A stretch of 16,513 nt of DNA from an uncultured bacterium (GCA_964510165.1 CAZEBC010000082.1:1-16513); one strand, 5' to 3'. Positions 8,821-13,536 are shown, counted from the stretch's first letter. Numbers and translations are program-made. Notes: generated by a model from the letters alone, not told the origin.

Positions 8821-9624
8821 GTGAAATCGGAGACGCCTTTGAAACGCAATTCAGCCGCAGGCAGGGAAATCTCGCGGCTGTGGGCGGAATATAAGACGGA
8901 AGGAAGCGCGGCGGCCAAGGACGCACTCACCGTCCATTATCTGAGCCTTGTCAGGATCATCGCTGGACGAATGGCGCTCACCTCGCCGCCACACATAGAA
9001 GAAGATGACCTTATCGGCTGGGGCGTGCTCGGACTCATGGACGCGGTCGAGAAGTTCGATCCCCGGCAGAAAACCAGCTTCGAAACCTATGCCTTTACCA
9101 GAATACGGGGCGCCATAATTGACCAAATCCGATCGCTCGACTGGGCGCCGCGCTCGCTCAGGCAGAAGGCCCGCCGAATGACGCAGGCGGCCTCCGATCT
9201 CAAGGAGCGATTGGGCCGTCCGCCAACCGAAGGGGAACTTGCTGCGGAACTCAACATGACCAATGATGAACTGTTTCAGCTTCAAACCGATGTTCACGGC
9301 GCATACATCTTGTCGCTTGACGCGGCAATTTCCGCCAACGACGAGCCGGAAGAGACTGCACTGAGTCAAATCAGCGACAATAACCCCTCACCCGAGGAAC
9401 GGGCCGCGCGAAACGAAATCGAGGAGCGCCTGGCCCGCGCAATAGAGAAGCTGCCCCCGAATGAACGGCACGTGATCACGTTGTACTATTATGACGAACT
9501 CACGCTCAAGGAAATCGGAGAGGTGCTCGGTCTGTCCGAATCACGTATCTGCCAGGTTCACGGGGCCGTCATGAAGAAACTGAGGAACATTCTCAATTTC
9601 GGGGTGCACGATGCTCTTTCTTGA
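8821..9624 (+). CDS. fliA: RNA polymerase sigma factor FliA/SigD/WhiG (sigma28)
   Basis: DLIGWGVLGLMDAVEKFDP, FETYAFTRIRGAIIDQIRSLDWAPRS, LYYYDELTLKEIGEVLGLSESRICQVH. Start uncertain: GTG 8821 has no SD, TTG 8839 has a GGAG SD. Confidence 0.95.
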   Translation: MKSETPLKRNSAAGREISRLWAEYKTEGSAAAKDALTVHYLSLVRIIAGRMALTSPPHIEEDDLIGWGVLGLMDAVEKFDPRQKTSFETYAFTRIRGAIIDQIRSLDWAPRSLRQKARRMTQAASDLKERLGRPPTEGELAAELNMTNDELFQLQTDVHGAYILSLDAAISANDEPEETALSQISDNNPSPEERAARNEIEERLARAIEKLPPNERHVITLYYYDELTLKEIGEVLGLSESRICQVHGAVMKKLRNILNFGVHDALS

Positions 9625-11984: not shown

Positions 11985-12029
11985 CCCCTTACCCAGCCCT
12001 CTCCCGATGCGAGAGGGCTGGGGTGAGGG
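11985..12029. repeat. palindromic REP-like element, copy 2; possible end of the flagellar transcript
   Basis: CCCCTTACCCAGCCCTCTC-ccgatgc-GAGAGGGCTGGGGTGAGGG, same family as 6651-6696. Confidence 0.75.
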
Positions 12030-12075
12030 AAAACCCCAAAAAAGGAGTTGAGATGTCTCTTTTGAGGCGGATACG

Positions 12076-12093: not shown

Positions 12094-12135
12094 ACCAGGC
12101 TAAGAATCTTGGAGTGATGATTTTAAGTATATATA

Positions 12136-12148
12136 TACCAATATGTTA
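12136..12148 (+). promoter_or_regulatory. candidate IHF site
   Basis: TACCAATATGTTA has one mismatch to WATCAANNNNTTR and sits in an AT-rich tract between the palindrome and the -24/-12 element. Confidence 0.45.
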
Positions 12149-12174
12149 CAAAATATTAGACATTCACGTGGCTA

Positions 12175-12191
12175 CTGGCAAGCTTGTTGCT
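12175..12191 (+). promoter_or_regulatory. sigma54 (RpoN) -24/-12 promoter
   Basis: CTGGCAAGCTTGTTGCT has one mismatch to YTGGCACGNNNNTTGCW. Predicted TSS ~12202. Confidence 0.8.
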
Positions 12192-12363
12192 TATCTACAG
12201 GTTGCAGTTCGGAAGCAAGGAAGTCTGGAGGGTAAAGGGCATTACGCATGGCCGCAGCACAAGGCTGTGAGACTGAGATGAATAAAACGCGTGGCTCTCA
12301 TCGGATCGTTCAAACAAGCACACACGGCTTCCTATTCATGGTACTGAGGAGGAGAACGAGACA

Positions 12364-12657
12364 ATGTCAGCCACCACTCTGGGGATCATAATACTCTTGG
12401 CTGCGGTAGGCATATACCTCTATGTGATGGGGCTGTGCCACCTCTGCGACGTACATGAGCGAAAACAGGTCGAGAAGAAACAGGCAGAAGAGAAAAGGCG
12501 CAAAGAGGAGTTGCAGCGCGCCTATGAGGAGACGGAATTGAGGCGGAAACAGGAGGTCGAGCGTCGCAGACAGCTCGCCGAGGCGCGCCGCCAACAGACG
12601 GCAGGCCCAAAGAGGGCGAGGCTTGGCGCTCCAACGCACGCCGCCACTGCAAGATAG
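12364..12657 (+). CDS. hypothetical 97-aa membrane-anchored protein (TM, CHLC, E/K/R-rich helix)
   Basis: Strong SD GAGGAGGAG (12346-12354), hydrophobic N-terminal segment, charged helical region, upstream sigma54 promoter. Confidence 0.8.
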   Translation: MSATTLGIIILLAAVGIYLYVMGLCHLCDVHERKQVEKKQAEEKRRKEELQRAYEETELRRKQEVERRRQLAEARRQQTAGPKRARLGAPTHAATAR

Positions 12658-12664
12658 GGAGTGC

Positions 12665-12693
12665 TTGCATTCCGCGAGTCAAGATGGTATAAT
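12665..12693 (+). promoter_or_regulatory. sigma70-type promoter with no conventional downstream gene
   Basis: TTGCAT (12665-12670), 17-nt spacer ending in TG-n, TATAAT (12688-12693). Confidence 0.75.
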
Positions 12694-12699
12694 AAATTG

Positions 12700-12947
12700 G
12701 TTTAGCTAAGGTGTATTACCTTGACGACGAAATCGAAGAGGAAATCATAGCGGATATCGGGTTATGAAAAAACAATTTTTGCGGGCAACCTAAAAATGGT
12801 GTGGGTGGACGGTGGGCGCCGGTCAACGGGGACGGCTGGCGCCTTCGCCCGCAAAATTCGAAGTTTCGGGAAAGAGATTCCGTACCTCCTAAGATAAAAA
12901 CAACGGGAGTCCCGCGTGCCAGTCGGAATCCTTTCCCGAATTTTTTT
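12700..12947 (+). ncRNA. candidate structured non-coding RNA, family not recognised
   Basis: Follows the sigma70 promoter. Stems 12777-12786/12847-12856, 12815-12824/12834-12843 (2 G-U) and 12865-12882/12924-12940, then T7 (12941-12947). Confidence 0.5.
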
Positions 12948-12953
12948 GTCTAA

Positions 12954-12996
12954 AAATATTCGGGGACACCATAATTCATGGTGTCCCCGAATATTT
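12954..12996. repeat. perfect 19-bp inverted repeat (GGGGACACC/GGTGTCCCC REP-like); likely terminator between convergent units
   Basis: AAATATTCGGGGACACCAT-aattc-ATGGTGTCCCCGAATATTT, 15 nt past the stop of the minus-strand gene. Confidence 0.8.
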
Positions 12997-13011
12997 AGAC
13001 CTTTCGGCTGG

Positions 13012-13536
13012 CTATTCGCTCAGGTGCAAAGTGTCGCGGTAGCGCCTCGGCAGCGTCTGGTAAAACTGGGTAGCCAAGGTCCAAAGCCGTTCCTGCTCAT
13101 CGGTTACATCGCACGCGATCTTGCCCGGCACACCCATCACCAGCTTCCTCGGCGGAACCTGCATCCCCGGCTTCATCACGCAGCCGCTCCCGATGATGCA
13201 GCCGTCTCCCACCTCGCAGAAATCCTGGATGACCGCGTTCATCCCCACGAGCACGTGTTCATGTAGGATAACTCCATGCAGGACCGACCCATGCCCGATG
13301 TGGCTGTTCGGTCCGAGCTTCACCGTGAACTCCGGGCGCGCATGGATGATGCAGTTGTCCTGGACGTTCGAGCCGTCTCCGACTTCGATGTCGCACCAGT
13401 CGCCTCTCAGCCTGGCGCCGGGGCCGATCCAACAATTGCTCCCGATCTTCACTCCGCCGATGAGCGTGGCGTCCGGATGCACATACGAGCCCTCTCCCAC
13501 CTGCGGGACCTTCCCCTCAAACTCATAAATAGCCAT
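13012..13536 (-). CDS. gamma-carbonic anhydrase family protein (left-handed beta-helix, YrdA/PaaY-like)
   Basis: Hexapeptide repeats, LRGD, SNVQDNCIIH, IGHGSVLHG (three metal-ligand His), VMGVPGK. Confidence 0.92.
   Translation of the reverse strand: MAIYEFEGKVPQVGEGSYVHPDATLIGGVKIGSNCWIGPGARLRGDWCDIEVGDGSNVQDNCIIHARPEFTVKLGPNSHIGHGSVLHGVILHEHVLVGMNAVIQDFCEVGDGCIIGSGCVMKPGMQVPPRKLVMGVPGKIACDVTDEQERLWTLATQFYQTLPRRYRDTLHLSE

Follow-up and report, generated by a model that had tools for sequence, protein, structure and literature searches.

In the uncultured bacterium whose DNA was analysed here (one stretch of 16,513 nucleotides, hereafter the window; its genome is referred to as G000), a flagellar gene cluster is followed at its end by a locus for a structured non-coding RNA. 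Comparative analysis shows that the locus has a predicted promoter of its own, ends in a predicted terminator, is syntenic with a small upstream gene (orf97), and has paralogs in leader positions. The RNA spans about 250 nt overall, with a two-hairpin core of ~170 nt (12777-12940) followed by U7. The family to which it belongs is probably a new one of regulatory RNAs; its members known to date come from a single family of a small candidate phylum and from a handful of metagenome contigs. The reading that we tentatively favour is that of a structured regulatory RNA with an invariant core serving as a partner-binding site, of which the copies in cis would attenuate downstream genes while the window copy would act in trans.

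The locus, its transcription signals and its distribution

The genes of the window run in the order fliR, flhB, flhA, flhF, MinD/FlhG-like ATPase, fliM, fliN/Y, FliA/WhiG sigma factor, DUF6115 protein, FliK, FlhB-C-terminal-like protein and orf97. The RNA locus then fills a gap of 354 nt between orf97 and a convergent hexapeptide-repeat gene, past which lie an MBL-fold gene and cstA (Table 1). Two side observations concern the flagellar genes themselves. The FliA/WhiG gene (8821-9624) fits a good sigma-28-type promoter, TAAAG-N15-GCCGATAT, that precedes flgM elsewhere in the genome (G000:C296, ~2058-2085), judged against the sigma-28 consensus. Directly 3′ of the FlhB-like gene, at ~11990-12035, an inverted repeat (CCCAGCCCTCTC...GAGAGGGCTGGG) collects contigs from DNA runs, whose summed depth rises to as much as 362 from ~9 alongside; loose ends flank it on either side, and it is probably another dispersed repeat family.

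Table 1. Features of the RNA locus and its surroundings, in window coordinates.
Feature	Position	Strand	Remarks
Sigma-54-type promoter motif TGGCAA-N5-TTGCT (predicted)	12176..12191	+	upstream of orf97
orf97, 97-aa small membrane protein	12364..12657	+	constant upstream partner of the RNA
Sigma-70-type promoter of the RNA, extended -10 (TGg-TATAAT) (predicted)	12665..12693	+	kept in 11/11 full copies
Variable leader, two local unconserved hairpins	12700..12776	+	start ~12700 inferred from the -10
Domain 1	12777..12856	+	outer stem 12777-12786/12847-12856; inner stem 12812-12824/12834-12846
Domain 2, family core	12865..12940	+	P1 12865-12874/12931-12940; P1b 12877-12882/12924-12929
U7 tract; with P1 of domain 2, predicted intrinsic terminator	12941..12947	+	11/11 full copies
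Palindromic dispersed repeat, REP-like	12953..12997	.	RNA-to-convergent-gene interval; outside the RNA family
Convergent hexapeptide-repeat gene (gamma carbonic anhydrase / PaaY-like)	13012..13536	-	bounds the locus; syntenic in relatives

The promoter TTGCAT-17-TATAAT proposed by an earlier, sequence-only reading of this DNA can be read directly, with a -35 element at 12665-12670, a spacer of 17 nt, a -10 element at 12688-12693 and a TG at 12685-12686. A consensus promoter scan of the window did not list this site, and TTGCAT agrees at only three of six positions with the -35 consensus TTGACA. The call was accepted nonetheless because the site is conserved among the copies: TTGC-N15-17-TGnTAnnAT is matched by 10 of the 11 orthologous full copies, and the eleventh reads TTGATT-N17-TAAAAT. 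This motif evidence points to an RpoD-type promoter belonging to the RNA itself. At the other end, a T run of 6-8 follows P1 directly in all full copies (group A). An alignment of the seven genome copies accordingly falls into three zones, namely a conserved promoter, an unconserved leader, and a near-invariant core with its T run. The leader varies in both sequence and length, and the distance from -10 to core ranges from 46 to 110 nt among the 11 full copies. The two small hairpins noticed earlier (12707-12723 and 12745-12767) do occur in the minimum free energy fold of the window; they sit, however, in this unconserved part. The short ORFs of the leader, with 9 aa in the window and 6 aa in G001, showed no conservation in G004 when the alignment was inspected by eye.

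The core (~170-185 nt) is 86-89% identical at the nucleotide level in six other genomes, which belong to different genera of the same family (BLAST). The phylum is a candidate phylum with 11 species genomes in the collection, ten of them in the family of the RNA. Among the 41 genomes searched by BLAST, G000 included, seven of the nine other family genomes were matched, six with the core, and the 31 genomes of other families gave no match. A covariance model of domain 2 finds a full-scoring copy (97-105 bits) in G000, G001, G004, G006, G007, G008 and G009, and lower-scoring paralogs in G000, G001, G002, G005 and G007; over 151 genomes it matches nine of the ten in the family and none of the 141 others. 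In metagenome contigs, a gapped exact pattern picked out 13 loci, seven of which are model-positive and hold eight further copies; the remainder (L164, L165, L167, L168, L173 and L174) are chance pattern matches scoring 20.2 bits at best. The full copies thus number 11, seven from genomes and four from metagenome contigs (L163, L171, L172 and L175). A pattern of 15 letters proved too short for genome contigs: it hit at least 120 stretches, and an nhmmer profile of the core found one real match among those listed (L084, already in the set), the others being chance. Viral contigs gave three pattern matches and no model match.

Synteny is fixed in all seven genome copies, with fliK, the flhB-C-terminal-like gene, orf97, the RNA and the convergent hexapeptide gene in this order. 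Amino acid identities of the flanking proteins range from 43 to 82% (FliK 43-63%, the FlhB-like protein 71-81%, the hexapeptide protein 76-82%), and the RNA core is more conserved than these coding neighbours. One concern was that the element might belong to a dispersed repeat or be hairpins come together by chance, given that the palindrome adjoining it is itself a dispersed repeat: perfect over 45 nt, it has matches at 18 other places in its own genome and dozens in G004, G006 and G009 (BLAST), and shows depth spikes and loose ends in DNA runs. Only this palindrome repeats, however. The window's own genome holds one full core copy and one partial paralog, of domain 2, and the core is syntenic, strand-specific and covarying, so that an origin as repeat or chance is refuted for the core and hardly credible as an account of the locus. 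Separately, a stretch of 22 nt at G000:C165:6739-6764 (-), beside GC-rich palindromes, is 95% identical to GUCCCGCGUGCCAGUCGGAAUC of domain 2; the covariance models give no match there, and it may be a relic or chance.

The RNA appears to be undescribed, as had been supposed, in view of Rfam 15 and of a literature search for 'DUF3347' with 'riboswitch', which found no paper. Rfam 15 has no match at gathering score anywhere in the window, only chance-level matches within 12550-13100 (the best on the RNA 18.7 bits against a threshold of 45), and none at E ≤ 0.5 in 12 homologous or paralogous loci. No hallmarks of 6S or SRP RNA had been seen in the element, and the genome's own 6S RNA (RF00013) and SRP RNA (RF00169) lie elsewhere, at C41:23624-23802 (110.4 bits) and C277:1814-1913 (69.3 bits).

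The upstream partner, orf97, encodes a protein that has a TM helix at its N-terminus, a tail rich in Lys, Arg and Glu and a YLYVMGLCYLCD motif. Neither Pfam nor NCBIfam has a family for it, and its Atlas look-alikes were generic proteins with a TM helix and a long helix, all below the bar; judged by its alignment, orf97 is a real conserved gene. Homologs occur in nine of the 11 phylum genomes and are followed by the RNA in seven. In the other two, the contig ends 128 nt past the orf97 stop, at an apparent -35 (G002), or within orf97 (G003). Neither orf97, with the query used, nor a full RNA was found in G005 and G010; FlhA is present in all 11. The protein-plus-RNA module postulated earlier is supported by this co-occurrence, orf97 standing directly upstream of the RNA in 7/7 genome copies and in 3/4 metagenome copies (L163, L171 and L172), and both being absent together in two genomes. 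The fourth metagenome contig (L175) is too short upstream to show orf97; its downstream gene has a similar TM-plus-charged N-terminus joined to an FGE-sulfatase domain.

Upstream of orf97, TGGCA-N6-TTGC is present in all eight loci with enough upstream DNA, and resembles the sigma-54 consensus. Two RpoN (sigma-54) paralogs are encoded in the genome (G000:C50:16896-17369 and G000:C20:4709-5182), and this motif is likely to mark a second source of transcripts that run into the RNA. A very AT-rich stretch of ~45 nt (12120-12165) directly upstream of it could be a bending or activator-binding region. The 5′UTR of orf97 also carries a motif, CGCGUGGCUCUCA..CUCGUUC (12284-12310), that is kept in most relatives.

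Sequencing runs bear on this second source to some extent. None of the runs that carry the locus is recorded as RNA, and their contigs give no strand or ends; two small runs (X5 and X6, of 15.4 and 8.4 million letters) are labelled metatranscriptomic and flagged 'RNA? (probably DNA)'. In a 2-kb stretch around the locus, these two runs yield contigs at 12212-12810, 12213-12487 and 12533-12815 only, whereas two DNA runs cover nearly the entire stretch. The contigs begin at 12212/12213, ~20 nt past the sigma-54-type motif, and bridge the orf97 stop and the RNA's promoter and leader into domain 1. They fit a transcript that runs from the sigma-54-type promoter into the RNA, strand and library type being uncertain. 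No contig of X5 or X6 covers 12816-12947, which is evidence neither way and may reflect tight structure, processing or loss of small RNA.

Fold of the core and pairing of the ACCUCCU motif

The two adjacent hairpin domains drawn in the sequence-only reading are borne out by covariation. In domain 1, an inner stem of 13 bp carries the apical loop AACGGGGAC (12825-12833), and an invariant G-rich internal loop lies on the 5′ side (12799-12811). Three pairs of the inner stem have changed on both sides, with many G-U/G-C/U-A alternations besides, and in the outer stem C-G is replaced by G-C in two sequences. Domain 2 had been described as a bulged stem followed by T7, which holds: P1 and P1b lead into the tract, and this U-tract is found in 11/11 copies. 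Within domain 2, an internal helix, P2 (12886-12890/12905-12909, CUCCU:GGGAG), closes an A-rich loop (12891-12904; 11-15 nt among copies) and is followed by an invariant 3′ bulge of 14 nt, UCCCGCGUGCCAGU (12910-12923). Three long unpaired segments are invariant in 11/11 group A copies, and GUCCCGCGUGC of the domain 2 bulge has been retained by 18 of the 20 copies, paralogs from unrelated contexts among them.

With the reservation that these figures overstate independence, the sequences being related (one bacterial family, 20 only) and the alignments model-fitted, 89.1% of cells are paired in the two-domain alignment (n = 14, six single-domain paralogs left out), against at most 56.8% with the partners slid, and nine pairs have changed on both sides; in the domain 2 alignment (n = 20), 90.4% of cells are paired against at most 69.6%, seven pairs have changed on both sides, and none of 500 shuffles was as good. 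In the two-domain alignment the G002 row is out of register by three columns where the 3′ strand of the inner stem lies, which counts against the structure, and the E-value threshold excluded one reverse-strand match of 30.7 bits from the domain 2 set. Both domains are real, and their helices covary. As in riboswitch aptamers, a conserved fold with covarying stems is combined with invariant junction and loop nucleotides.

Folding energy alone is weak and indecisive evidence (-86.8 kcal/mol, z -2.24, on the + strand; -76.8 kcal/mol, z -2.90, on the - strand), and it is conservation that is decisive. G-U pairs are frequent, especially in the inner stem, and, as claimed before, fit the + strand only; scores of the covariance model are 97.9 bits for the + strand and 26.9 bits for the - strand. 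The RNA is therefore assigned to the + strand. The unpaired parts vary in length in three places (11-15, 11-40 and 25-27 nt) by indels that are not multiples of three, so that no reading frame is conserved.

Both domains contain CCTAA and CAACGGG, a repetition already pointed out in the sequence-only reading. Alternative pairings were weighed as well: GUGGGUGGA could pair with the 3′ strand of domain 1 (84.7% paired), UGCGGG with CCCGCG of the domain 2 bulge (94% paired), and loop GGGAC with GUCCC, a candidate contact examined in the two-domain alignment, where its columns are invariant within group A. Because such columns are invariant, covariation is silent on these alternative folds and candidate tertiary contacts. 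One change, from G to C in alignment column 84, has a compensating change in the standard outer stem and none in the alternative.

The sequence-only reading had also singled out ACCTCCT (12884-12890) as a perfect anti-SD, perhaps acting on SD sequences such as that of orf97. The motif exists, and ACCUCCU is invariant in the 11 full copies; its availability as a free seed is what finds no support. CUCCU is the 5′ strand of P2 and pairs with GGGAG inside domain 2. In 19 of 20 copies the P2 position is occupied by a helix of at least 4 bp, which persists in the paralogs despite altered sequences (ATCCC/GGGAT, TCCCT/GGGGA, CTCCA/TGGAG, CTCCAG/CTGGAG, GCTCTT/AGGAGT and CTCCC/GGGAG). Thermodynamic ensemble calculations leave the motif mostly paired in nine of the 11 copies, the outer P2 pair having a probability of 0.30-0.94; in two copies the predicted probability that the motif is unpaired reaches 0.5-0.7. 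Since the ACCUCCU strand belongs to a covarying helix, a free anti-SD seed is unsupported, and the motif is therefore a structural element first of all. P2 is short and weak (5 bp), so that transient opening to pair with SD sequences is possible.

No specific target emerged from several searches. The flgM and flagellin leaders offer generic SD complementarity only; the core compared with the genome by blastn-short gave chance-level 12-15-mers only; and RNAduplex, run with the whole core against the orf97 leader, did no better than shuffled controls, the core being located in one of seven loci only. Complementarity of 7-12 bp between GGGAGUCCCGCG of the RNA and the orf97 5′UTR motif was considered and set aside, as it is within chance by our own estimate and shows no informative covariation.

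These results bear directly on the possibility that the RNA is a base-pairing sRNA of the CJnc230 (FlmE) type, in which the C/U-rich ACCUCCUAA and the A-rich loop would block SD sequences of flagellar or neighbouring mRNAs. The genome, which is 97% complete, yielded no Hfq, and other bacteria without Hfq use C-rich seeds. The stretch ACCUCCUAA is invariant in 11/11 group A copies, and P2, with one G-U among its 5 bp, closes a loop of 11-15 nt and is predicted to open in the two copies just mentioned. The layout is suggestive, too: CJnc230 of Campylobacter jejuni is encoded directly downstream of an RpoN-dependent flagellar-regulon gene, is co-transcribed with it and also has its own RpoD-type promoter, and acts by anti-SD base pairing (PMC11187230), and the predicted dual source of the window RNA, from the sigma-54-type transcript of orf97 and from its own promoter, follows the same plan. 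Against such an sRNA, the motif is a helix strand maintained by compensatory changes in the paralogs and is mostly paired in the ensemble. A seed would also leave unexplained why three further unpaired segments are invariant and why paralogs are located in cis; the 5′ end is the variable part, and the target searches, the orf97 5′UTR included, came to nothing specific. We regard this explanation, the main rival of the favoured reading, as rather unlikely, though it deserves some weight.

Sequestration of CsrA by an sRNA of the CsrB/RsmZ kind, tied to flagellar control, is far less plausible, and we give it very little credence. CsrA is encoded in the genome, the core contains five GGA triplets, and several leaders have AAGGAGA-like motifs. 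Only two of the five triplets are unpaired, though, and the purine-rich leader motifs are absent from two of the seven genome copies (G006 and G008); known CsrA decoys carry many more sites.

Paralogs of domain 2 and a proposed mechanism

The paralogs comprise nine copies, consisting of domain 2 alone or, in G002, L169 and L166, of domain 2 with a diverged domain 1. In G000, G001, G002, G005 and L170 they are flanked by a DUF3347 gene and a class I SAM-methyltransferase gene, an ORF of 51 aa with a YHS domain coming ahead of the latter in G000. The L169 paralog is 5′ of a cytochrome c gene, that of G007 sits between a ParA/CooC-like ATPase gene and a GAF-HD_5 gene, and L166 has two units in tandem (326-409 and 659-741) between the end of a DUF3347-type gene and the next ORF. 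In the first of the L166 units the bulge has diverged (UCCUCUCGCGCC). A response regulator with a receiver domain and ~190 aa that lack any Pfam family is encoded downstream of the DUF3347-RNA-methyltransferase locus (L191 3182-4120 - and L192 205-1143 +).

The U-tracts of the paralogs are weaker and interrupted, and an ORF follows at 25-150 nt; in their contexts, these copies look like leader or attenuator elements. The 5′-leader position with a stem and U-rich tract is confined to the nine paralogs, the window copy being followed by the repeat and the convergent gene.

According to the reading that we tentatively favour, the RNA would be transcribed from its own housekeeping-type promoter and probably also by read-through from the sigma-54-type promoter of orf97, and would be released by a terminator formed from the outer stem of domain 2 and U7. 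Its functional part would be the folded core of ~170 nt (12777-12947). The window copy is the stand-alone member of the family and domain 2 the shared module, which also serves as an intercistronic or leader element preceding SAM-methyltransferase, cytochrome c and GAF-HD-GYP genes. The covarying helices would position the invariant segments, namely the G-rich loop of domain 1, the UCCCGCGUGCCAGU bulge and the CUCCU:GGGAG helix, to form a binding site for a conserved partner, which we infer to be either a small ligand or a protein. Occupancy of this site might decide, in the copies located in cis, whether the terminator-forming outer stem holds, and so attenuate the downstream gene. For the window copy, which would be expressed together with orf97 where the flagellar cluster ends, the role envisaged is one in trans, as a regulator that binds the partner or as a decoy. 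The riboswitch-like logic is drawn only from the paralogs, because the window copy regulates no downstream gene.

A more specific proposal, which we consider unlikely as it stands, makes domain 2 the sensor of a new riboswitch class with the aptamer within its own terminator hairpin and domain 1 as an accessory. The leaders of the methyltransferase, cytochrome c and HD-GYP genes would then be cis switches, and the window copy a promoter-driven orphan that passes on in trans, to the orf97/flagellar regulon, whatever the switches sense, be it a metal, a second messenger or a methyl-cycle metabolite.

The element could instead be nothing but an elaborate mRNA 3′ end, that is, a terminator and stabiliser of orf97 and, in the paralogs, of DUF3347 and ATPase mRNAs, protecting against exonucleases or insulating the convergent gene. 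Every copy does lie 60-350 nt after a gene on the same strand and end in a stem and U-tract, and contigs span orf97 and the element. This account seems improbable to us in view of the dedicated promoter conserved between orf97 and the element in 11/11 copies, the invariant internal loops, for which a terminator has no need, and a core that is better conserved than the coding neighbours.

As for the function that had been assigned to it, the view of the locus as an sRNA stands as regards an undescribed + strand RNA with a predicted promoter and terminator of its own in a module with orf97, and is unsupported as regards the free anti-SD seed. To a candidate phylum known from 11 genomes in the collection, with no cultured member among those seen, it would add a well-defined family of structured RNAs that has a promoter and a terminator as well as helices that covary and invariant loops. 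Since one module is used both as a stand-alone RNA next to flagellar genes and in methyltransferase leaders, it is a tractable candidate for a new riboswitch or a protein-RNA regulatory pair. It would also provide a second, independent example, here based on motifs, of the layout known from Campylobacter in which an sRNA is combined with a sigma-54 operon and its own promoter. Should it prove to be a lineage-specific sRNA and nothing more, it would matter only locally.

Comparison with known systems

CJnc230 resembles the window RNA (PMC11187230) in lying downstream of an RpoN-dependent gene and in dual transcription (both of which are, for the window RNA, predictions from motifs and from contigs of uncertain strand and library type), in an anti-SD-like motif and in its terminator. 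CJnc230 is 88-98 nt long and holds its anti-SD in a single-stranded stretch of 12 nt (PMC11187230), whereas the window RNA has a core of ~170 nt and its motif in a covarying helix. The window RNA further differs in its large additional invariant segments and its paralogs in non-flagellar leaders, and the two have no evident sequence relation.

MicL and DapZ exemplify sRNAs that derive from a 3′UTR, have an internal promoter, and act via Hfq and a conserved single-stranded seed. The window RNA is like them in sharing the terminator of the upstream mRNA and in having a promoter of its own that lies within the upstream gene or directly after it. It is unlike them in that Hfq was not found here and that the conserved part is a folded core.

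Some RNAs that act in trans derive from a riboswitch or contain one, EutX/Rli55 and SreA among them. A further case is the SAM-I riboswitch/sRNA of Desulfovibrio vulgaris (bioRxiv 10.1101/803072). As in these systems, the module studied here occurs both in cis and as a terminated stand-alone RNA, possibly acting in trans or by titration; in contrast to them, it has no Rfam aptamer match, and its stand-alone copy has a dedicated predicted promoter.

The HMP-PP (thiS) motif is a transcription-terminating riboswitch with the aptamer embedded in the terminator stem. In the window RNA, too, conserved nucleotides lie inside a hairpin whose outer stem and U-tract would form the terminator. Domain 2 is larger, however, at ~76 nt, with an internal helix and a bulge of 14 nt and no conserved antiterminator identified, and its family is without a coherent metabolic gene set beyond the methyltransferase context.
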